From NCBI GenBank assembly GCA_963748625.1, contig CAVVJT010000001.1, positions 1 to 28,285 of the forward strand: a stretch of 28,285 bases of DNA, written 5' to 3'. Within the stretch, counting starts at the first letter, position 1; every line of letters starts with the position of its first letter. A program made the position numbers and the translations under genes. The notes under the pieces were generated by a model. It was given only the letters and a program-made list of their open reading frames with translations. It was not told the origin of the DNA and did no database searches. This document shows positions 5,263 through 17,972 of this stretch, one piece after another. This DNA is from an uncultured Chloroflexia bacterium (GTDB taxonomy: Bacteria > Chloroflexota > Limnocylindria > Limnocylindrales > CSP1-4).

Positions 5263-6099
5263 TCAGCGGGGCGCGGCCCGCGGGAACGCCGCGTCGTAGG
5301 CCGCGACGAGCCCATCGCCGAACGCCTCGAGGTCGCCATCCCCCACGCCGCGCCGCTCGGCCGCCCAGCGCGCCGTGATTGCGACGAACTCGGGCGTGTT
5401 GCGCCCGCGATTGCCGCCCGGCGGCGAGAGGAACGGTGAATTGGTCTCGACCAGGAGGCGGTCGGCGGGCACGAGCGGCGCCACGTCCGCCGACGCCTCC
5501 TCGCCCTTGCGGAACACGAGCCCCGAGAACGAGATCACGCCGCCCATCGCCAGCATCTCGCGGGCGTAGTCCACCGGGCCGCTGAAGCTGTGCACAATCA
5601 CCCGCGGCCGGTCGCCGAAGGCCGCCTCCCCAGCGGCTCCATCGAACCCCGCTGCCCGCAGCTCGGCCACCAGCGCGTCCTGCGCGTCGCGCTCGCCCAC
5701 GCGGGAGCGGCAGTGGAGGATCGGCGGCTTGCCCGTTGCCAGCGCCAGGGACAGGTTCCGGCGCAGGTTGTCGAGCTGGTCCGGCCACGGCGAGAACATC
5801 CGGTCCGAGTCCAGGCCCGTCTCGCCGATCGCCAGCACGCGGGCGTCCTGCGCCCAGGCCTCGACGATCGCCCAGTCGGCGGCGTCGACCTTCGCGGCAT
5901 CGTGGGGGTGCACGCCCACGGCGGCGTCCATCCAGGCCCAGCGGCTCACGACCTCGAGGGCGCGCTCCGACGAGCGGAGGTTCCAGCCCGGAACCAGGAG
6001 CCGCTCGACGCCCGCGAACACGGCGCTCCCGACGACCAGCTCGAGGTCGACGTCGAAGCGGTCGGCGTTGAGGTGGCCGTGGGCATCGACCAGGCGCAT
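5263..6099 (-). CDS. tatD: TatD family metal-dependent hydrolase/DNase, 278 aa
   Basis: DAHGHL, AVGVHPH, IGETGLD, ILHCR, IVHSF and LLVETNSP motifs. Lies downstream of metG as is common. Confidence 0.92.
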   Translation of the reverse strand: MRLVDAHGHLNADRFDVDLELVVGSAVFAGVERLLVPGWNLRSSERALEVVSRWAWMDAAVGVHPHDAAKVDAADWAIVEAWAQDARVLAIGETGLDSDRMFSPWPDQLDNLRRNLSLALATGKPPILHCRSRVGERDAQDALVAELRAAGFDGAAGEAAFGDRPRVIVHSFSGPVDYAREMLAMGGVISFSGLVFRKGEEASADVAPLVPADRLLVETNSPFLSPPGGNRGRNTPEFVAITARWAAERRGVGDGDLEAFGDGLVAAYDAAFPRAAPR

Positions 6100-6555: not shown

Positions 6556-8213
6556 GCGGGGCCTCCTGCGGCAGCGTCGGTTTCGACAGCTTCAGTCTCG
6601 AGGCGCGGGAACAGCGGCTGCGGCGTCTCGATGACCTTGCCCGCCTCCCAGGCTGCGCCCCACTCGAGCTGCCCGAGGATGGCGGGTCCGCCGTTCCCGT
6701 CGGGCTGGTAGGCCCAGCCGTAGCCAAGCTGCTCGAGGATCCGGGGCGCCGCGGCGGGCATGAACGGCGCCACCGCGAGGCCGATGAGCCGGCAGGCCTC
6801 GACGAGGTCAGCCAGGACTAGGCGGAGTCGTGTGGCAGCGGCCTCGTCGCCCGCCTTGGCGGCCTTCGCAAGGTTCCAGGGCTGCTCGGCATCAACTGTC
6901 TTGTTGGCGCCGCCCACGAACTCCCAGAGTTCGGCGAGCGCGTCGTGGAGGCGATAGGTGGCGAGCTCGTCCTGGTACAGCCGCAGCGTGTCAGCCCAGC
7001 CCTCGGCCAGCGGGGACTCGCCCGCGGGACGGGGCGCCGGCCGCTCGCCGCCGAGGTAGCGGTTGACCATGGACACAGTCCGGTTGACCAGGTTGCCGAA
7101 GTCGTTGGCGAGGTCCGCGTTGTAGCGGCGCACGAAGCTGTCCCAGCTGACGTCGGTGTCCTTGTCGAAGGCGACCTCACGCAGGGTCACGTAGCGCGCG
7201 CCGTCGGCCCCGAAGGCGGCGACCACCGCGTGCGGGTCGAGGAAGTTGCCGCGGCTCTTGGACATGCGCTCGCCCGATACGAGCAGCCAGCCGTGGACCC
7301 AGACGTGCTTGGGCGCGTCGATCCCGGCGGACCACAGCATCGCGGGCCAGTAGATGGTGTGGAAGCGGGCGATGTCCTTGCCGATGACGTGCAGGTCCGC
7401 CGGCCACCACTTCTGGAACATCTCGATGTCGCCCGGGAAACCGGCGCCGGTGATGTAGTTAATCAGCGCGTCGTACCAGACGTAGATCGTGCCGGCCTCC
7501 GGATCCCAGGAGCCGTCCTCACGCTGGGCGGTCTGACCGTCCTCACCGATGGGGAACGGGATGCCCCAGGTGGCACCTGCGCGGCTGATCGAGAAGTCCT
7601 CGAGACCCTGGCGGATGAAGCCGAGCATCTCGTTGCGCCGATAGTCCGGTTGGACGAAGTCCGGGTTGGCCTCGTAGTAGTCGAGCAGGCGCTGCTGGTA
7701 GGCCGACAGGCGGAAGAACCAGTTCTTCTCGGTCAGGTACTGGAGCGGCACGCCCTGGTGGTTGGGGCACTGCATGCCCTCGGCCGTCTCGACCAGGTCC
7801 GACGGGGCCTTGAAGCCCTCGCCCGTGCAGTACCAGCCCTCGTAGGTGCCCTGGTAGATGTCGCCGGTCTCGAATGCGCGGCGGACCATCTCCTGGGCCG
7901 AGAGGTAGTGGTCCGGGTCCGTCGTGCGGATGAAGCGGTCCGGGCTGATGAGCAGCGCGTCCTCGGCCGAGGTGAACAGCTGCACCTTCTCGTCCACGAA
8001 CTCGCGCGGCGTCCGGCCCTGGGCCTCGGCGGCCTGGGCGATGTTGACGCTGTGCTCGTCGGTGCCGGTCAGGAACCGCGTGTCGTCGCCCTGCATCCGG
8101 TGCCAGCGCGCGATGACGTCGGCGCCGATGACCTCGTACACGGTGTGGAGGCCCGGCGCGTTGTTGGCGTAGGCAATGGCAGTGGTGACGTAGAAGCGAC
8201 GACGATCGGACAT
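6552..8213 (-). CDS. metG: Methionine--tRNA ligase (short form, no C-terminal tRNA-binding/dimerisation domain), ~553 aa
   Basis: FYVTTAIAY, FLTGTDEH, FIRTTD, IYVWYDALINY, IGKDIARFH, RMSKSRGN, DLANDFGNL, PLFPR. Start ATG 8213. Confidence 0.96.
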   Translation of the reverse strand: MSDRRRFYVTTAIAYANNAPGLHTVYEVIGADVIARWHRMQGDDTRFLTGTDEHSVNIAQAAEAQGRTPREFVDEKVQLFTSAEDALLISPDRFIRTTDPDHYLSAQEMVRRAFETGDIYQGTYEGWYCTGEGFKAPSDLVETAEGMQCPNHQGVPLQYLTEKNWFFRLSAYQQRLLDYYEANPDFVQPDYRRNEMLGFIRQGLEDFSISRAGATWGIPFPIGEDGQTAQREDGSWDPEAGTIYVWYDALINYITGAGFPGDIEMFQKWWPADLHVIGKDIARFHTIYWPAMLWSAGIDAPKHVWVHGWLLVSGERMSKSRGNFLDPHAVVAAFGADGARYVTLREVAFDKDTDVSWDSFVRRYNADLANDFGNLVNRTVSMVNRYLGGERPAPRPAGESPLAEGWADTLRLYQDELATYRLHDALAELWEFVGGANKTVDAEQPWNLAKAAKAGDEAAATRLRLVLADLVEACRLIGLAVAPFMPAAAPRILEQLGYGWAYQPDGNGGPAILGQLEWGAAWEAGKVIETPQPLFPRLETEAVETDAAAGGPA

Positions 8214-8283: not shown

Positions 8284-10743
8284 TCAGGGCACCCCACCGA
8301 GCAGCAGGCGGCTGATGCTCCAGGCCTCGGACTCGCTTCCCTTGCACCGGACCCGCACCGGTCCCGGGCGACTGGGGTCGAACGGGGCGGTGATCCGCGT
8401 GACCCGTCCGCCGGTCACGGCCAGGTACAGGAGTCCGACCAAGGGCGAGAGCAGGATCGCCAGCACGCAGCCGAGCCCGAGGTCCCGCCCGACCTCCACG
8501 GCCGCCACCTCGCGGACCGGGAACACCGCCACGTGGACGACCCGGTAGCGCTCCAGCCAGGCGCGCCCGGCGACCACCACCAGCAGCCAGGCGCCGAGCA
8601 GCGCGAGGAGTCCGGTGGCCAGCCCGCCCGGTACGGCGCCTCCCGGCGCGAGCATGGCCCCGGCGATCGCCGGGACCAGGAGCCCGGCACCGCTGAGCAG
8701 CACGAGGGCCCGGTACTGGTGACGTGCCGCCGGGTCGAGCAGCTCCGTCCGGGCGGTGACCATCCCATCGACGACATCCAGCCAGACACGTCCACGGGCC
8801 GCGCCGTCGGCAGTCCCGATCGACACCCAGGAAGCACCTGCCGGGAGGCGGCCCGGAGACACCATCGCGACGGATGCCCCGTGGACTGGAGCCGCCGGGA
8901 CTGGCGGGACCATGGGGCTCGATGTCGCCTGCGGCAGGTACGGGGCTTGCGGTGCGCTCACCGTCGCCGGTGCGACCGGGGCTGGCGGTGCGACCAGGCC
9001 CTGCGGCCCGGCTTCCTGCGGCCCCGATGCCGACGCCACCCGGTCCACCAGCCATGCCACACCGGTGACCATCGAGAACGCGAGCACCAGGCCCATCGTG
9101 ACCTGCACGTTGCGGTTCGCGAGCGCCATCGCCGGATCGCCCTGCGGGTTGAGCAGCGTGTGGAAGAAGAGGAAGGTCGCCCCGCCCGTCGCAAGGAGCC
9201 AGGCCACGCGGCTTCGCTCGCGCAGCATGTCGCCCGCCGATCCTCGGAACCCCACCAGCGCGACGAACAGGTTCTGCAGCGCCGACGCGAACACCAGCAG
9301 GAGCATCGCCTCGATCCCCGCGAGGCCGTTGGCCAGCCCGCCGTCTCGGGCGAGCGCCGTTGTCACCATCGTGATCGCCCATGCGACGCCGCCCACGGCC
9401 GCGAGCACCGCCACCCCGATCACCGCGAGGCGCCGCGCCCGGGTAGCACCAAGCTCCGCGTCGTCGAGCCGCAGCGCTTCCGGCGTCCCGAACATGAGCC
9501 CCGGCACGACGGCGGCAACCCTGGACACCCCGACCGACCCGGCGGCCAGCAGCAGCGTCGTCGGCCGCACCGACAACGACGCTGCGACGCCCCACCGCCG
9601 CGCGACGGCCCACGCGACGAGATCGTCGCCCACGCCCACGAGTCCGTTGGCCACAGTGAACGACAGGAGCAGCCAGATCCCGGTGATCGTGAGCGGCTCC
9701 CAGCCGGGTTCCAGCAGCGAGAACACCAGTCCGTAGAACAGCGTGACGACCACGAGCGCGGTTACGTCACGCAGGCGGCGGCGCCGGATCCGCCCGGTCG
9801 TCGCCGTCCCGATCCGCGCCTCGAAACGAGCCAGCACCCCGACGCCCGGGACCCGTGCGGCGATTGACGCCTCGTGCCGCGCGAGGAGCCTCGAAGCCAC
9901 CTTCGACGAGATCGTGAGCAACAGGAGCGCGAGCGCGGCGAGCAGGAGGTTCGTGCCCACCACGGCAGGGTCGGTACTCACGTCGAGCGGACTCGGGATG
10001 TGGGTGGTGATCACCGGCACAAGGGGTCCGGCCGGACGGTAGACCGGGGCCTCGGAGCCCACCGCTGCAGCCAGCCGTGCGTCGAGGATGCCCGCGACCT
10101 CGGCAAGGGACGTGACCGGCTCGACGCCCTCGGTCCACGCGTGGCCCACGACCGCGAGGACGGGGCCGCGCCGAGCCGCGACCGCCCGGTACTCCACGCC
10201 GAGGTCGGGCATGTGGATGGCGACCGCGAAGCTGCTCACACCGGCACGTACGCCGGCGATCATCTCGACCTCGGCGTCACCCATCGTTGCAGCCACGGCA
10301 TCCTGGACGAGACGGTCCGCCTGCTGCACCGTGGCGTCGAAGGCTGCCTGGTCGCCAGCCGCCAGCGGCCCGAGGAGCACCGCGGTCACGAACTCGGCCC
10401 CTGACTCCGTCCGGCGCTCGAGGACCATGGCGTTGTGGTCGCCAGCTCCAGGCGAGTCGCGGAGGCCGCCTGCGAGCGCATGTGCCAGCGACGTGAAGGA
10501 GTCCACGTCTGCCGCGCTCGGGGAGAAGCCCGCAGGAAGGTCGTCGGCCGTGATGACGACCGGGCTGAGATCCGGCAGTGTGGCCGGCGTGGGCGCGGGA
10601 GAGGGATCGGCGCCGAGGACCGGGGACGCACCCGCGAGGGCGATCGCGCCTGCCAGCAGCACCGCCCGAACAGTGGCCGCCCGCGCGACGGGCAGCGCGT
10701 CGCCGCCCACGAGACCCTGGCGCAGCAGTTGGCGGATGTCCAC
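8284..10743 (-). CDS. Large multi-pass membrane protein with N-terminal exported domain (resembles FGLLP-motif membrane proteins), ~819 aa
   Basis: Probable GTG start at 10743 with GGAG upstream, then a signal-like AVLLAGAIALAGASPVLG, a ~200-aa soluble domain, ~9 hydrophobic segments including PGLMFG, a Pro/Ala linker and a further ~3 TM segments. Family assignment is from memory of motif style. Start uncertain. Confidence 0.6.
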   Translation of the reverse strand: MDIRQLLRQGLVGGDALPVARAATVRAVLLAGAIALAGASPVLGADPSPAPTPATLPDLSPVVITADDLPAGFSPSAADVDSFTSLAHALAGGLRDSPGAGDHNAMVLERRTESGAEFVTAVLLGPLAAGDQAAFDATVQQADRLVQDAVAATMGDAEVEMIAGVRAGVSSFAVAIHMPDLGVEYRAVAARRGPVLAVVGHAWTEGVEPVTSLAEVAGILDARLAAAVGSEAPVYRPAGPLVPVITTHIPSPLDVSTDPAVVGTNLLLAALALLLLTISSKVASRLLARHEASIAARVPGVGVLARFEARIGTATTGRIRRRRLRDVTALVVVTLFYGLVFSLLEPGWEPLTITGIWLLLSFTVANGLVGVGDDLVAWAVARRWGVAASLSVRPTTLLLAAGSVGVSRVAAVVPGLMFGTPEALRLDDAELGATRARRLAVIGVAVLAAVGGVAWAITMVTTALARDGGLANGLAGIEAMLLLVFASALQNLFVALVGFRGSAGDMLRERSRVAWLLATGGATFLFFHTLLNPQGDPAMALANRNVQVTMGLVLAFSMVTGVAWLVDRVASASGPQEAGPQGLVAPPAPVAPATVSAPQAPYLPQATSSPMVPPVPAAPVHGASVAMVSPGRLPAGASWVSIGTADGAARGRVWLDVVDGMVTARTELLDPAARHQYRALVLLSGAGLLVPAIAGAMLAPGGAVPGGLATGLLALLGAWLLVVVAGRAWLERYRVVHVAVFPVREVAAVEVGRDLGLGCVLAILLSPLVGLLYLAVTGGRVTRITAPFDPSRPGPVRVRCKGSESEAWSISRLLLGGVP

Positions 10744-10935
10744 CGGCGTCTCCGGGCCGCGCGCGACCGGACCCCTGCCGGCCAGCATGCGGATCGTGCG
10801 CCGCCCGCGCCCGCCGGGACAGGGCCGTCCGCCCTGCAACGAGGGCCGCATCGCACCTTGGTCCCGGCGCGGCGCGGCGCAATGCTTGGGTTGGCTGCAG
10901 TCCGTCGCGCGCCAACAGCCGCCAGGGAGAGGCCG

Positions 10936-11829
10936 ATGCTGCCGGTCGTCGCCGCCGTCGCGCCCGCGTGTGGCGGTTGCGGGCGCCCCCCCGGACCCGG
11001 TGACCGGTTCTGTGCGGGCTGCGGGGGCCATCTCGAGTCGGCCGCGCAATCTGCGCCACCGGTGCCGGTCTCCTCGCCACGGGTGCCGGTCTCTGCGCCA
11101 CCGGTGCCGGTCTCCTCGCCGCCGGCGCCGCCAGGACCCCCTGGAGCGGCGACCGCGCCGCCGGCCTCGCCTCCCCCACGTCCGGTGTCGGCGTCGCCAG
11201 GCGTGCCCGGTCCCCAGGTGTCCGTCGGCGGCGTGCCCTCGTCGGTCGGGCGGCGCGCGTCGGGCATTGGCTGGGTCGGTGTCGTGGCCGTTGCGCTGCT
11301 GTTTGCGGTCGGAAGCTCGGCCGTGGTGGTCGCGGGACTCGGGGAGACCCGGCCTCGGCGGATCGCGCCCACACCGGGAGCCGCTGCCCCTGCCGACCCG
11401 GACGGTATCCCCGCCGCCGTTGTCGACGACCGCCTGTTCGACGGCAGCTCCGTCGTCGCGGACGAGCCGTTCACCATCCGTGTCGCAGCCGCCAACCCGG
11501 CGTCGAGGGCCACCGACCCGGTGTGGCTCGTCCTGGAGTGGCGGCCCGCCGACGCCGATCCAGGTCAGGCAGCCGACGGCACCGTCATCGCGTGCGATCC
11601 GGCCGACTGCATGTCGAGCGACGATCCCGACGCCCACCGGACCGCCGTCCGCTGGCCGGGCCTCCCTCCCGGGACGGAGACGACCTACGAGGTGACGGTC
11701 CAGGTGACCGGCATCGAGCCCGGCGACACCTTCCGCTACCACGCGACCGCCGGATCCGGATCACGGCCGGACGCCATCGACGCCGGGAGCGCCTGGACCC
11801 TCGAGCTCGCCGTGGAGGCGCAGGAATAG
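10936..11829 (+). CDS. Zinc-ribbon domain single-pass membrane protein, ~297 aa
   Basis: CGGC...RFCAGCG zinc ribbon, a Pro-rich linker, TM segment WVGVVAVALLFAVGSSAVVVAGL and a beta-rich C-terminal domain. GGAGAGG RBS before ATG 10936. Confidence 0.7.
   Translation: MLPVVAAVAPACGGCGRPPGPGDRFCAGCGGHLESAAQSAPPVPVSSPRVPVSAPPVPVSSPPAPPGPPGAATAPPASPPPRPVSASPGVPGPQVSVGGVPSSVGRRASGIGWVGVVAVALLFAVGSSAVVVAGLGETRPRRIAPTPGAAAPADPDGIPAAVVDDRLFDGSSVVADEPFTIRVAAANPASRATDPVWLVLEWRPADADPGQAADGTVIACDPADCMSSDDPDAHRTAVRWPGLPPGTETTYEVTVQVTGIEPGDTFRYHATAGSGSRPDAIDAGSAWTLELAVEAQE
11050..11129 (+). repeat. In-frame 21-bp tandem repeat (S-A/S-P-P/R-V-P-V) x ~3.8
   Basis: Units at 11050, 11071, 11092 and a partial unit at 11113. 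Units 1 and 3 are identical. Confidence 0.85.
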
Positions 11830-13106: not shown

Positions 13107-15359
13107 TCAGTGGCGGAAGTGGCGCCGACCGGTCACCAGCATCGCGGCGCCCGCCTTCTCGACGTCCGCGAGGACCTCGGCGTCGCGCATCGAGCCGCCC
13201 GGCTGGACGATCGCGCTGACCCCGGCTTCGAGCAGGACGCGCGGGCCGTCCGGGAAGGGAAAGAATGCGTCCGAGGCGGCCACCGCGCCGGTCGCGCCCG
13301 CCTCGCCCTGGAAGGTCCGTGCCTTCTCCACCGCGCCGCGGCAGGCGTCCACGCGCGAGACCTGGCCTGAGCCGAGGCCCACGAGCATCCCGTCGCGCAC
13401 CAGCAGGATCGCGTTCGACACCACGCCGCGGCAGAGACGCCAGGCGAGGTCGAGGTCCGCCAGCTCGCGCGCCGTGGGCTGGCGTGACGTCGTGCACACC
13501 CACTCGGCGGCGTCATCGGGGAGCGTGTCGGGCGCCGTCACGAGCACGCCGCCGCCCGCCGTCCGGAACGAGCCCAGCCAGTCCACAGCGGTCGCCGAGC
13601 CACGCGACGCGTCCGCGTCGAGCGAGGGATCGACCACGAGTCGCAGGTTCGGCTTGGAGGCCAGCACCTCCCGCGCGCCCTCGTCGAACGCCGGGGCGAC
13701 CACGACCTCCAGGAAGATCGACGTCAGCCGCTCGGCCAGCGCCCGGTCCACGGTGCCGGTGATCGCCACCACGCCCCCGAACGCCGACACGGGGTCGCCC
13801 GCCAGCGCCGCCTCCCAGGCCTCGAGCAGGGTGGGCCGCTCCGCGGCGCCGCAGGGGTTGGTGTGCTTGACGATGACCACCGCAGGCCCGCGCATCAGGC
13901 GCCCGAGTGCCGCCGCCGCCGACGCGTCGAGCACGTTGTTGTACGAGAGCGCCTTGCCCTGGAGCGGCGGCTCACCGCTGGTGAACGGGCCCTCACCGAT
14001 GCGCGGCTCGCGGTCGGTGCGCCTGTAGCGGGCGGCAGGCTGGTGGGGGTTCTCGCCATACCGGAGGGTCTCCACCTTCTCCAGCGAGATCGTCAGGACC
14101 GGCGGGTACGGGTCCTCGGCGCCGGGCAGGCCCGGGTCCGGCGGGAGAGGCACGCCGGCCTCGAACATCCGGCACGGCAGCTCCGCCGCGATCCGGGCGT
14201 CATACGCCGCGGTGTGCCGGAACGCCTCGACCGCCAGGGCGGAGCGCAGGCCGAGCGGGACGGACCCGTGCTCATCGAGGGCCGCAAGGACGGCGCCATA
14301 CCGGGAGGGCGACGTGACGATCGCGACCGACGCATGGTTCTTGGCGGCGGCGCGGACCATGGACGGCCCGCCGATGTCGATCTCCTCCACCAGCTCGTCG
14401 AACGTGATCCCGGGCCTGCGCGCGGCGGCGGCGAACGGGTAGAGGTTGACGACGACGAGGTCGAAGGGCGCGATGCCGGCCGCCAGCAGGGCCTCGCGGT
14501 GGTCCGCGCGCCGGCGGTCGGCGAGGAGGCCGGCATGGACGCGGGGGTGGAGCGTCTTCACGCGGCCGTCGAGCATCTCCGGAAAGCCGGTGACGGCCGC
14601 GACGTCGGTGACTGGCAGGCCGGACTCGCGCAGGGCGCGTGCGGTACCACCCGTGGACACGAGCTCCCAGCCGCGGGCGATGAGACCACGACCCAAGTCC
14701 ACCAGGCCGGTCTTGTCGGAGACCGACAGGAGGGCGCGACGCGGGACGGGCATGGCGGCATCGGCGATGGCAGCCGAGAACGAGGCGCGCCGCGCGCCCG
14801 GTTCGACCGTGATGGCACCAGCGAGCAGGCCCGCGACGGCGCCGGGGAGCAGCCGGTGCTCGACGGGGTGGGTTCGCTCGGCCAGCGTCTCCTCGGTGTC
14901 GCCCGGCAGGACCGGGACCGCCTCCTGGGCCACGATCGGTCCGCCATCGAGCGTGGCATCGACAAGGTGCACGGTCACCCCGGTGACGGCCACACCGGCC
15001 GCAAGGGCGTCGGCGATGCCGTGAAGCCCGGGGAACGACGGCAGCAGCGACGGATGCACGTTGAGGATCCGCCCGCCGAAGCGTGCCAGGACCTCGGGCC
15101 CGACCAGGCGCAGGTAGCCGGCGAGCACCACGACGTCGGGGGCGACGACCTCAAGCGTCTCGCCCAGGATCGCGTCATTGCCACCGGGGACCACGATCGT
15201 GTCGATCCCCTGCTCCGCCGCCCAGTCGAGGCCCGCGCACGGGCGGTCGGCGAATACGAGGACCACGTCCCCGCCGAGCTCGCCGCGCCGCGCGGCCGCC
15301 ACCAGCGCCCGCAGGTTGGAGCCGGTCCCGCTCACCCCGACCGCGATCGTCCCGCTCAC
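13107..15359 (-). CDS. purH: Fused phosphoribosylglycinamide formyltransferase (PurN) + bifunctional AICAR transformylase/IMP cyclohydrolase (PurH), ~750 aa
   Basis: GTG 15359 overlaps the purM stop. PurN motifs SGTGSNL, LAGYLR, NVHPSLLP, LDGGP continue without a stop into PurH motifs ALLSVSDK, GRVKTLHP, IDIGGP, LRYGENPHQ, KHTNPCG, ASDAFFPF, RHFRH. Confidence 0.93.
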   Translation of the reverse strand: MSGTIAVGVSGTGSNLRALVAAARRGELGGDVVLVFADRPCAGLDWAAEQGIDTIVVPGGNDAILGETLEVVAPDVVVLAGYLRLVGPEVLARFGGRILNVHPSLLPSFPGLHGIADALAAGVAVTGVTVHLVDATLDGGPIVAQEAVPVLPGDTEETLAERTHPVEHRLLPGAVAGLLAGAITVEPGARRASFSAAIADAAMPVPRRALLSVSDKTGLVDLGRGLIARGWELVSTGGTARALRESGLPVTDVAAVTGFPEMLDGRVKTLHPRVHAGLLADRRRADHREALLAAGIAPFDLVVVNLYPFAAAARRPGITFDELVEEIDIGGPSMVRAAAKNHASVAIVTSPSRYGAVLAALDEHGSVPLGLRSALAVEAFRHTAAYDARIAAELPCRMFEAGVPLPPDPGLPGAEDPYPPVLTISLEKVETLRYGENPHQPAARYRRTDREPRIGEGPFTSGEPPLQGKALSYNNVLDASAAAALGRLMRGPAVVIVKHTNPCGAAERPTLLEAWEAALAGDPVSAFGGVVAITGTVDRALAERLTSIFLEVVVAPAFDEGAREVLASKPNLRLVVDPSLDADASRGSATAVDWLGSFRTAGGGVLVTAPDTLPDDAAEWVCTTSRQPTARELADLDLAWRLCRGVVSNAILLVRDGMLVGLGSGQVSRVDACRGAVEKARTFQGEAGATGAVAASDAFFPFPDGPRVLLEAGVSAIVQPGGSMRDAEVLADVEKAGAAMLVTGRRHFRH

Positions 15360-16530
15360 CGCCCCATCTCCCGCATCGGCCAGTCCAGGGTGCGCGCCGT
15401 GTCGATCTCCGCGTAGCGCCCGCCGATCGCGGACGCCTCGACCACCTCGCCGATCGTCCAGGCCTTGATCCCCAGGCCCTTGAGGATCTCCACGGCGGCA
15501 TTCGCTGCCTCGGACGGCACCACCGCGATCATCCCGATCCCCGCATTGAACGTGGCGCGCAGCTCGGCGTCGCCGATGTGCCCGAGCGCGCCCAGCACCC
15601 GGAACACCGCGGGCATCGTCCACGACGAGATGTCCACGCGGGCACCCAGGTGCTCCGGCAGCGCCCGCGGCACGTTGCCTGGCAGTCCGCCGCCGGTGAT
15701 GTGGGCGAACCCGCGCACCTCGTGTCCGGCCGCCTCGAAGGTCGTGCGCATCGTGAGCAACTGCTTCGCGTAGACCTTCGTCGGTGTGAGCAGCACGTCG
15801 CCCAGCGTCGCGTCGATGAGCTCGGGCGCCTCGAGCAGCTCGAGGCTGGACAACGAGCACCCCAGCGCCCGGCACGCGAGACCGCCCCACGGCTGGGAGA
15901 GGTCGAGCCGCTGGTCCGCGATGATCCGCCGCACCAGCGAGTACCCGTTGGCATGCAGTCCCGACGAGGCCATGCCCACGATCAGGTCGCCCGCCTTCGC
16001 AGCCGACCCGTCGAGCAGCCGCGAGCGCTCCCCCACCCCGGTGCAGAAGCCGGCCAGGTCGAACTCGTCGGGCTTCATGAGACCCGGGTGCTCCGCGGTC
16101 TCCCCACCCACGAGCGCGGCACCGGCCTGGCGGCAGCCCTCCGCGATGCCGGCAACCAGCGCGGCGACCCGCTCCGGGTCCAGCCTCCCGATCGCGATGT
16201 AGTCCAGGAACGCCACCGGCTCCGCGCCCGTGCAGGCGACGTCGTCCGCGCACATCGCCACGAGGTCGATGCCGATGGTGTCGTAGCGCCCGACGGCTGC
16301 GGCGATCGCGGTCTTCGTGCCCACACCGTCCGTGGACGACACGATGACCGGCTCGCGGTACCCGGCCGGGATCGTGAACCCCGAGCCGAACCCGCCGAGA
16401 CCGCCCAGGATCTCCGGGCGCCGCGTGGAGGCCACCGATGCGCGCATGAGCTCCACTGTCCGCTCGCCCGCCTCGACATCGACGCCCGAGGCCGCGTAGG
16501 CGGACCGGTCGGCCGACCCCTTCGCGCCGC

Positions 16531-16534
<4 letters not shown>
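15356..16534 (-). CDS. purM: Phosphoribosylformylglycinamidine cyclo-ligase (AIR synthetase), 392 aa
   Basis: YAASGVD, STDGVGTK, DLVAMC, GGETAEHPG, SSGLHANGYSL, AHITGGG, TFNAGIG. Confidence 0.97.

Positions 16535-17972
<1,438 letters not shown>

Follow-up and report, generated by a model that had tools for sequence, protein, structure and literature searches.

The H-x-G-H signature defines the class I aminoacyl-tRNA synthetases, in which it is a textbook transition-state-stabilising element. The metG gene on a 28,285-nucleotide stretch of DNA from an uncultured Chloroflexia bacterium (assembly GCA_963748625.1, contig CAVVJT010000001.1; hereafter the window, which is the entire contig C1 of that assembly) raises the question of whether a methionyl-tRNA synthetase (MetRS) in which this signature reads Gly-Leu-His-Thr can be the working enzyme of its cell. 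The original prediction, made from the letters of the window, proposed a natural swap of the first and third positions, analogous to the one in the type 2 isoleucyl-tRNA synthetases (IleRS2), with the fourth His also lost. In the analysis presented here, the open reading frame (ORF) is considered likely to encode the active and sole housekeeping MetRS, of the MetRS1 type, of a class of Chloroflexota named Limnocylindria or Limnocylindrales in NCBI titles, with the class I signature permuted.

The prediction also knew of no description of the swap for MetRS, and no report of a swapped MetRS signature was found in the full-text literature searched, a scope outside which subscription journals and supplements lie. 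The passages of PMC10485003 and PMC13752280 considered here describe GXHH, reported in 2023 as an extraordinary solution, as exclusive to IleRS2 among the IleRS types and associate it with hyper-resistance to mupirocin; they do not report a swap for MetRS, which serves in the IleRS paper of 2026 (PMC13752280) as a reference family only.

Signature and identity of the window MetRS

The metG product begins with MSDRRRFYVTTAIAYANNAPGLHTVYEVIGAD, and the codons GGC CTC CAC ACC on the minus strand (8142-8153) specify residues Gly21-Leu22-His23-Thr24. In the HMMER alignment of the segment TTAIAYANNAPGLHTVYEVIGAD with TTAIAYPNAAPHVGHAYEYIATD of the Mycobacterium tuberculosis (Mtb) MetRS, which carries HVGH, there is no gap through the segment, and in MAFFT alignments of 72, 106 and 434 sequences GLHT occupies the four columns of H-x-G-x, being in register with 38 H-x-G rows in the smallest of them. 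The conserved flanks, Y15-x-N17-x-x-P20 before the signature and Y26-E27...D32 after it, are likewise gap-free, and neither the HMMER nor the MAFFT alignments contain a canonical HxGH at any other place in the protein. The canonical H-x-G-H at the start of helix alpha1 is thus represented by a single retained His: positions 1 and 3 are exchanged (G21, H23) and the fourth His is replaced by Thr24, as had been predicted. The signature is permuted rather than absent. It lies exactly where the usual HxGH lies, and formally the permutation is the same as that of GXHH in IleRS2, occurring naturally in a bona fide MetRS.

The family assignment is carried by several profiles. The protein scores above the cut-offs of TIGR00398 metG (426.5 bits against 336.35), PF09334 (303.9 against 20.1) and PF19303 (26.7 against 23.5), and under that of the full-length equivalog NF008900 (549.7 against 598). 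An AlphaFold2 model built from a 60-sequence alignment has a mean pLDDT of 94.5 and a pTM of 0.92; its best Foldseek match is 6ax8, the Mtb MetRS with methionyl adenylate (Met-AMP), at a TMt of 0.94, and the top 50 matches listed are all MetRS. The Rossmann fold, the connective-peptide (CP) domain and the helical anticodon-binding domain of MetRS1 are all recognised from the model, the Foldseek matches and PF19303. RMSKS (residues 316-320) is intact, as stated in the prediction, and the pocket residues for methionine and adenylate, Y15, D52, W246, Y253 and H285, are present and are invariant or nearly so in the 434 aligned sequences; they correspond to Y15, D52, W253, Y260 and H301 of the Escherichia coli enzyme. 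The first position of the KMSKS motif, Arg in the window protein, is divided about equally between R (218) and K (215) in the same alignment. The MetRS1 zinc knuckle (residues 129-152) is degenerate, reading C-T-G-E...C-P-N-H where the consensus of the relatives is C-x-S-C...C-P-x-H, with Glu132, which aligns with Mtb Glu130, in place of the second Cys.

The closest solved structures are those of the MetRS1 of Mtb and M. smegmatis (5xet, 6ax8, 5xgq, 2x1l; E about 1e-123, about 42% identity, TMt 0.94), with which the window protein has in common the monomeric architecture, the degenerate zinc knuckle and identical signature flanks. It differs from the Mtb enzyme in a 15-residue insertion around residues 225-239, in Asn57 at the equivalent of K54 and in the signature, which in Mtb is the canonical 18-HVGH-21 (PMC6038951).

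A sequencing error or a private decay of the gene was ruled out by the presence of the same motif in relatives together with synonymous codon variation. A second copy on contig C10 of the same assembly, with 96% amino acid identity, also has GLHT, and 125 distinct GLHT-coding DNA stretches from other genomes use four Gly codons (GGC/GGG/GGT/GGA), four Leu codons (CTC/CTG/CTT/TTG), two His codons (CAC/CAT) and three Thr codons (ACC/ACG/ACT). Such synonymous turnover with fixed residues indicates purifying selection on GLHT, and the earlier conclusion against a read error stands.

Distribution, copy number and history of the permuted signature

The swap is an old, conserved, clade-wide trait that is not private to the window organism; the taxonomic survey called for by the prediction found it, and not HxGH, in the close relatives. 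GLHT is present in 122 of 122 sequences, comprising the 120 homologues listed from a large protein collection (76-96% identity) and the two copies of the window's assembly; some of the homologues carry the source names Chloroflexota or 'Candidatus Limnocylindrales', and one (P0117) 'Candidatus Binatia'. Among 29 loci from genomes of relatives, which take in a second family with genomes of about 1.1 Mb and about 64% identity, 28 have GLHT and the remaining one is a contig fragment without the N-terminus. All 27 further loci of the window's own family carry G-[L/V/I]-H-T. In other families of the class, the motif is PLHS or ALHS in the 12 loci fetched from family f4, GLHH in the six MetRS1-type loci fetched from f3 and GLHF in the single locus from f5; the family-level tallies of matches from which these loci were chosen, like those of the IleRS pattern given below, include four unpublished genomes (G102, G122, G131, G134), none of which supplied a locus. 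The swapped lineage consists of soil and freshwater bacteria.

A census was taken with a degenerate DNA pattern based on the signature block, T-T-x-I-x-[Y/F]-x4-P-[G/A/P/R]-x-H-x-x-[Y/F]-x5-D, which matches once in the window and not at all in 100 shuffles. At least 120 stretches of a species-representative genome collection match it, and the 120 matches listed all translate to swapped MetRS N-termini of the form [G/A/P]-[L/V/I]-H-x (GLHT 81, ALHS 11, PLHS 9, GLHH 8, GVHT 7, GLHY 2, GIHT 1, GLHF 1). Their sources are metagenome-assembled genomes titled Chloroflexi/Chloroflexota/Chloroflexia, Limnocylindria/-ales/-us or Anaerolinea-type, with the exception of two titled Steroidobacteraceae and two titled just 'bacterium'. 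Across 401 Chloroflexota genomes of at least 80% completeness, the pattern is found in 44 of the 47 genomes of the window's class (its own included) and in one of the 354 genomes of other classes, with no match to a reversed control pattern. The three misses within the class are a genome with another MetRS type (G044), one with an extra Pro in the loop (PPPLHS; G089) and one reading GLHTLHE, with His in place of Tyr two residues past the signature (G045).

In family f3, nine genomes have only a distant MetRS match (E 1e-22 to 1e-41). The motif is known for one of the nine, G087 (locus L089, C17:22145-24087), the 600-residue MetRS of which is of another type, with canonical HLGH and 26% identity to the window protein. 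Genome G050 of the same family may carry both types, and in some f3 genomes the swapped MetRS1 seems to have been displaced by the other type.

Outside the clade, the best 150 of 2962 representative proteins (50% clustering level, E up to 1e-30) were sampled, of which 137 had a usable length and 132 a readable motif. His at position 1 with Gly at position 3 is found in 127 of the 132, and the five swapped representatives are all close relatives of the window MetRS. The fourth residue of the 127 H-x-G enzymes is H in 79, T in 22, S in 11, N in eight, F in five, Y in one and W in one, so that the fourth His is absent from 48. The earlier statement that HxGH is nearly invariant is therefore too strong for position 4 of MetRS1: the fourth His is commonly lost, and what is rare is the exchange of positions 1 and 3. 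The H-x-G-[T/S/N/F/Y/W] enzymes, among which Thr is the commonest replacement (22 of 127), are like the window protein in lacking the fourth His and differ from it in keeping the canonical residues at positions 1 (His) and 3 (Gly). Among swapped forms the fourth His is confined to family f3 (GLHH) and a few Dormibacteria-like sequences (GLHH, ALHH).

The copy number of metG bears directly on function. In the assembly to which the window belongs, which comprises 10 contigs and is 98.3% complete with 7.74% contamination, protein search and PF09334 scan found just two full-length MetRS genes, 96% identical and both GLHT; the weaker matches are LeuRS, ValRS, IleRS, CysRS and class I LysRS genes. 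Positions 5273-27517 of the window are collinear over about 22 kb with C10:134895-159067 at 86-89% nucleotide identity. Since the window is syntenic with C10 at about 88%, the two copies most likely come from two related populations binned together and are not paralogues; the same collinearity indicates that the assembly, with its recorded contamination, probably mixes two such populations. PF09334 scans of five relatives (G006 and G125, which are single-contig assemblies, G024, G054, and the streamlined 1.2-Mb G025) gave one full-length match each, the swapped gene. A canonical MetRS paralogue, for which the prediction had advised a search, was thus found neither in the window's genome nor in the five relatives. 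MetRS is indispensable to the cell, and because the permuted gene is the sole member of its family the enzyme must, to judge from the gene content, work as a catalyst.

The single pattern match from another class, in genome G479, has the motif ALHY; in four further genomes of that family the motif is HLGF or HLGY. With the G479 protein as query, a homology search listed 120 proteins, nine of them without a readable N-terminus and several named 'Candidatus Dormibacteraeota/Dormibacteria'. Among the matches listed, HLGF (42), HLGY (5) and QLGF (2) stand beside the swapped forms ALHY (13), GLHH (3), ALHF (3), ALHH (2), ALHT (1) and PLHY (1); the rest are Limnocylindria-type sequences and canonical outgroups.

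Trees were inferred with the motif columns removed. In the first (72 rows, IQ-TREE quick search), the swapped MetRS of the window's class joined the G479 family with a support value of 99. The second comprised 81 rows, 27 of 41 near-identical HLGF protein rows having been left out by list order, and contains a clade of 67 rows (support 96) made up of Limnocylindria (24 rows, all swapped) and a Dormibacteria-like group (43 rows, support 99). The earliest branch of the latter (five rows, support 99) is swapped, and the remaining 38 rows (support 100) include 14 swapped, 22 H-x-G and two Q-x-G sequences. On this tree the swapped label requires three changes; a tree uniting the inner clade's 24 H/Q-x-G rows in one group was not rejected by the approximately unbiased (AU) test, with a p-AU of 0.659 and a log-likelihood 13.25 higher. 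Many independent swaps are accordingly not claimed, just two changes being secure after the test. That the signature changed state at least twice appears secure from the trees, because H-x-G forms nest inside the swapped clade.

By parsimony the pattern reads as a single swap, placed at the base of the 67-row clade or earlier, and one later reversion, a reading that depends on rooting by the canonical outgroup, the tree itself inferring no root; otherwise at least four independent swaps would be required. At position 4 the presumed revertants have the Phe or Tyr of their swapped relatives (ALH[Y/F], GLH[Y/F]) and not the canonical His, which fits the reversion. The permutation would thus date from the ancestor shared by the Limnocylindria and Dormibacteria MetRS, or from before it, and would then have been held by purifying selection, part of the Dormibacteria-like branch having reverted to H-L-G-[F/Y].

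The Dormibacteria-like QLGF enzymes (locus L222, G318:C29:79666-83334; proteins P0298 and P0321) have no His at any signature position. The QLGF gene is the only full-length PF09334 match in G318 (94% complete, 2% contamination), and the cluster represented by P0298 comprises 19 sequences on seven contigs. Genome G272 of family f19 (94% complete) has no full-length PF09334 match, the best being partial, inside an 893-residue ORF (E 1.1e-21); its MetRS gene may simply be unassembled.

Mechanism and alternative explanations

In canonical MetRS1 the first His of the signature forms a hydrogen bond with the adenine, the Gly packs on the adenine ring and the fourth His binds the alpha-phosphate. 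In the structure of Mtb MetRS with Met-AMP, as described in the passages of PMC6038951 considered here, N-epsilon-2 of His18 bonds adenine N7, Gly20 lies against adenine C6/N1 and His21 bonds the alpha-phosphate. The corresponding passages of PMC10485003 report, from crystal structures of GXHH mutants of IleRS2, that N-epsilon-2 of the third His takes the place of the first His, this residue being accommodated by a shift of the helix tip of about 1.7 A, and that the swap costs IleRS2 a mild loss of activity, of up to tenfold in kinetic constants. By analogy, the imidazole of His23 in the window MetRS would reach the position of the first His and supply the adenine contact, while Gly21 (Ala or Pro in relatives) would supply the space; the hydroxyl of Thr24, or nothing, would replace the fourth His, and it may be offered to the phosphate. 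Because Phe and Tyr variants occur at position 4, the third (phosphate) contact is not essential in this subfamily.

The IleRS2 GXHH form ('GIHH'; Brkic et al. 2023, PMC10485003; PMC13752280) is the nearest known parallel. In the accounts considered, both systems are housekeeping class Ia synthetases with positions 1 and 3 exchanged, both are present across whole clades, and both have reverted in one sub-lineage, Deinococcus-Thermus for IleRS2 and part of the Dormibacteria-like group for MetRS; the MetRS of family f3 has exactly the GLHH that corresponds to the IleRS2 form. The differences are that the host enzyme is MetRS1, known here from sequence and a predicted model, and that the fourth His is gone from the window protein and from most of its clade (T, S, F or Y). 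There is, in addition, no inhibitor known against which the MetRS swap would protect.

Several observations weigh against the proposed accommodation of the swap and its reach. The passages cited report that H21A of Mtb MetRS, the fourth-His mutant, loses ATP-PPi exchange (PMC6038951), that a Pro in place of the Gly at position 3 severely harms E. coli MetRS (cited in PMC10485003), and that the swap abolishes activity in IleRS1 (PMC10485003) and in the archaeal IleRS-A (PMC13752280); given these losses of function, tolerance of the swap is context-dependent and not to be assumed. His23 and Thr24 are placed here solely by analogy. A search for compensating second-shell residues found only position 31 to co-vary nearby (Ala where the signature is swapped, Thr where it is H-x-G, in the Dormibacteria-like group), positions 59 and 63 looking like lineage noise; as kin share labels, the covariation is a lead and no more, and one column does not explain in structural terms why a His at position 3 would not clash with the adenine. 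The taxonomic restriction of the swap, which rests on the at least 120 census matches and on the best 150 of 2962 representatives, is not proven.

Of the explanations that would do away with the swap or with its function, a shifted register is highly improbable. His23 is the sole His of the segment and may formally be read as the first His of a degenerate H-T-V-Y after a two-residue insertion, the Gly and the fourth His being lost; this would require compensating indels within four residues on either side, whereas P20, Y26-E27 and D32 stand in exact gap-free register in the HMMER and MAFFT alignments, by which the shift was ruled out, and near-identical kin differ just at positions 1 and 3 (TTSIVYINNTP-HLGY against TTSIVYINNTP-ALHY). 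In the AlphaFold2 model helix alpha1 is moreover predicted to begin at residue 22, which we take to be its canonical start. It is scarcely credible that the enzyme is crippled or repurposed, Met-tRNA being produced by something else. The inactivity of Mtb H21A would agree with this, as would Asn57, since the Ala mutant of its Mtb equivalent Lys54 is reported as dead (PMC6038951). However, Asn57 belongs to an S-x-N subfamily, and of 100 canonical HxGH enzymes sampled, 26 likewise have S-x-N instead of G-x-K, so that the change is neither specific to the clade nor tied to the swap; strong purifying selection acts across the whole protein and motif, and no further MetRS-family gene exists in the window's genome or in the five relatives, two of them single-contig and one of 1.2 Mb. 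We know of no alternative route to Met-tRNA-Met.

The swap might instead be an adaptation that reduces the binding of a natural inhibitor at the adenylate/ATP site while keeping catalysis, under antibiotic pressure in soil or water. Such a role is possible by analogy with IleRS2, in which, according to the passages considered, GXHH gives hyper-resistance, as stated in the prediction, the third His clashing with the inhibitor (PMC10485003); in the present case it is judged unlikely. An effect on the handling of ATP or adenylate, which the prediction also suggested, is likewise conjectural. The IleRS of the window's genome is itself an IleRS2 with GVHH, and the DNA pattern for PMGVHHxWG accompanies the swapped MetRS in families f1 (34 of 35 genomes, in addition to the window's own), f2 (5 of 5) and f4 (39 of 40), so that lineages with both have the 1-3 swap in two of their class Ia synthetases. 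Against this, none of 39 genomes of family f3, in which the MetRS is swapped (GLHH), matches the IleRS pattern, so that the link between the two swaps is not a strict one; the trait is old and found throughout the clade, whereas acquired resistance tends to be patchy; the reversion to HLG[F/Y] in the sister group fits a near-neutral interconversion equally; and no resistance or biosynthetic genes were found around metG in the window by Pfam scan. To our knowledge there is no established natural-product inhibitor of MetRS. The single f5 genome also lacks a match to the IleRS pattern (0 of 1). The IleRS2 gene of the window's genome (G000:C3:243927-247301, minus strand; locus L215), with GVHH within ANNPMGVHHAWGR, scores 637.4 against a TIGR00392 cut-off of 621.4 and is strongly similar to MupA/MupB.

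Genomic context and significance

The coordinates of the metG features and of other ORFs of the window are collected in Table 1. The metG ORF can be extended upstream to a GTG at 8297, probably an artefact of high G+C; the ATG was taken as the start because the N-termini of the homologues match there. In locus L213, too, metG is followed by a TatD-like ORF (judged by eye), and metG-tatD is an ordinary housekeeping gene context.

Table 1. Coordinates, strand and basis of the features described in the window
Feature	Positions	Strand	Basis or remark
metG, methionine--tRNA ligase, MetRS1 type, 553 aa	6552..8213 (stop codon included)	-	ATG at 8213
G21-L22-H23-T24, permuted form of the class I signature H-x-G-H	8142..8153	-	Translation and alignments
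Signature block TTAIAYANNAPGLHTVYEVIGAD, from strand beta1 through the signature loop to the start of helix alpha1	8118..8186	-	Basis of the degenerate DNA pattern
Second class I signature R316-M-S-K-S320 (KMSKS loop), intact	7254..7268	-	Translation
Degenerate MetRS1 zinc knuckle	~7758-7829	-	
tatD-family hydrolase gene, downstream of metG	5263..6099	-	PF01026 TatD_DNase, 165.4 bits
ORF of 1152 residues, directly upstream of metG	8284-11742	-	Long hydrophobic stretches
Long ORF with PurN-like and PurH domains	13107-16637	-	Formyl_trans_N (residues 431-600), MGS, AICARFT_IMPCHas (644-1105)

The 1152-residue ORF had no Pfam match at E up to 1e-5, and its N-terminal part may be an artefact of high G+C. 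The long ORF with Formyl_trans_N, MGS and AICARFT_IMPCHas domains either represents a fusion of purN and purH or consists of two genes that share a frame uninterrupted by a stop. Elsewhere in the same genome, the CysRS (G000:C10:672273-673919, minus strand; locus L217) has H-I-G-N, the fourth His being replaced here too, LeuRS (HIGH) and ValRS (HLGH) are canonical, and the signature of the class I LysRS is HVGS. The assembly contains two genes for this last enzyme (C6 and C10), which may likewise come from its mixed populations.

The window MetRS represents a second, unrelated class Ia enzyme with the same permutation as IleRS2, long fixed in two bacterial classes as the only MetRS, and it loosens the tie between the permutation and one antibiotic. 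The natural series GLHT, PLHS, GLHH, ALHY, HLGF and QLGF allows the role of the signature to be dissected. The swap is also relevant to the design of MetRS1 inhibitors, since these use the adenylate and ATP region, and it is a warning to annotators and to motif-based classifiers that a synthetase missing the HIGH signature is not necessarily dead.

A broader proposal may be put forward tentatively, as one that could well turn out otherwise: in one MetRS1 subfamily, that of Limnocylindria and Dormibacteria, the class I signature would be no fixed requirement, a single His or Gln at position 1 or 3 sufficing with a small residue at the other, the fourth His being dispensable, and H-x-G-x and G/A/P-x-H-x having replaced each other in both directions. 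If this is true, the swapped enzymes could be intrinsically insensitive to adenylate-mimicking inhibitors, and the 1-3 swap would be a general latent alternative of the class Ia synthetases and not a resistance device specific to IleRS2.

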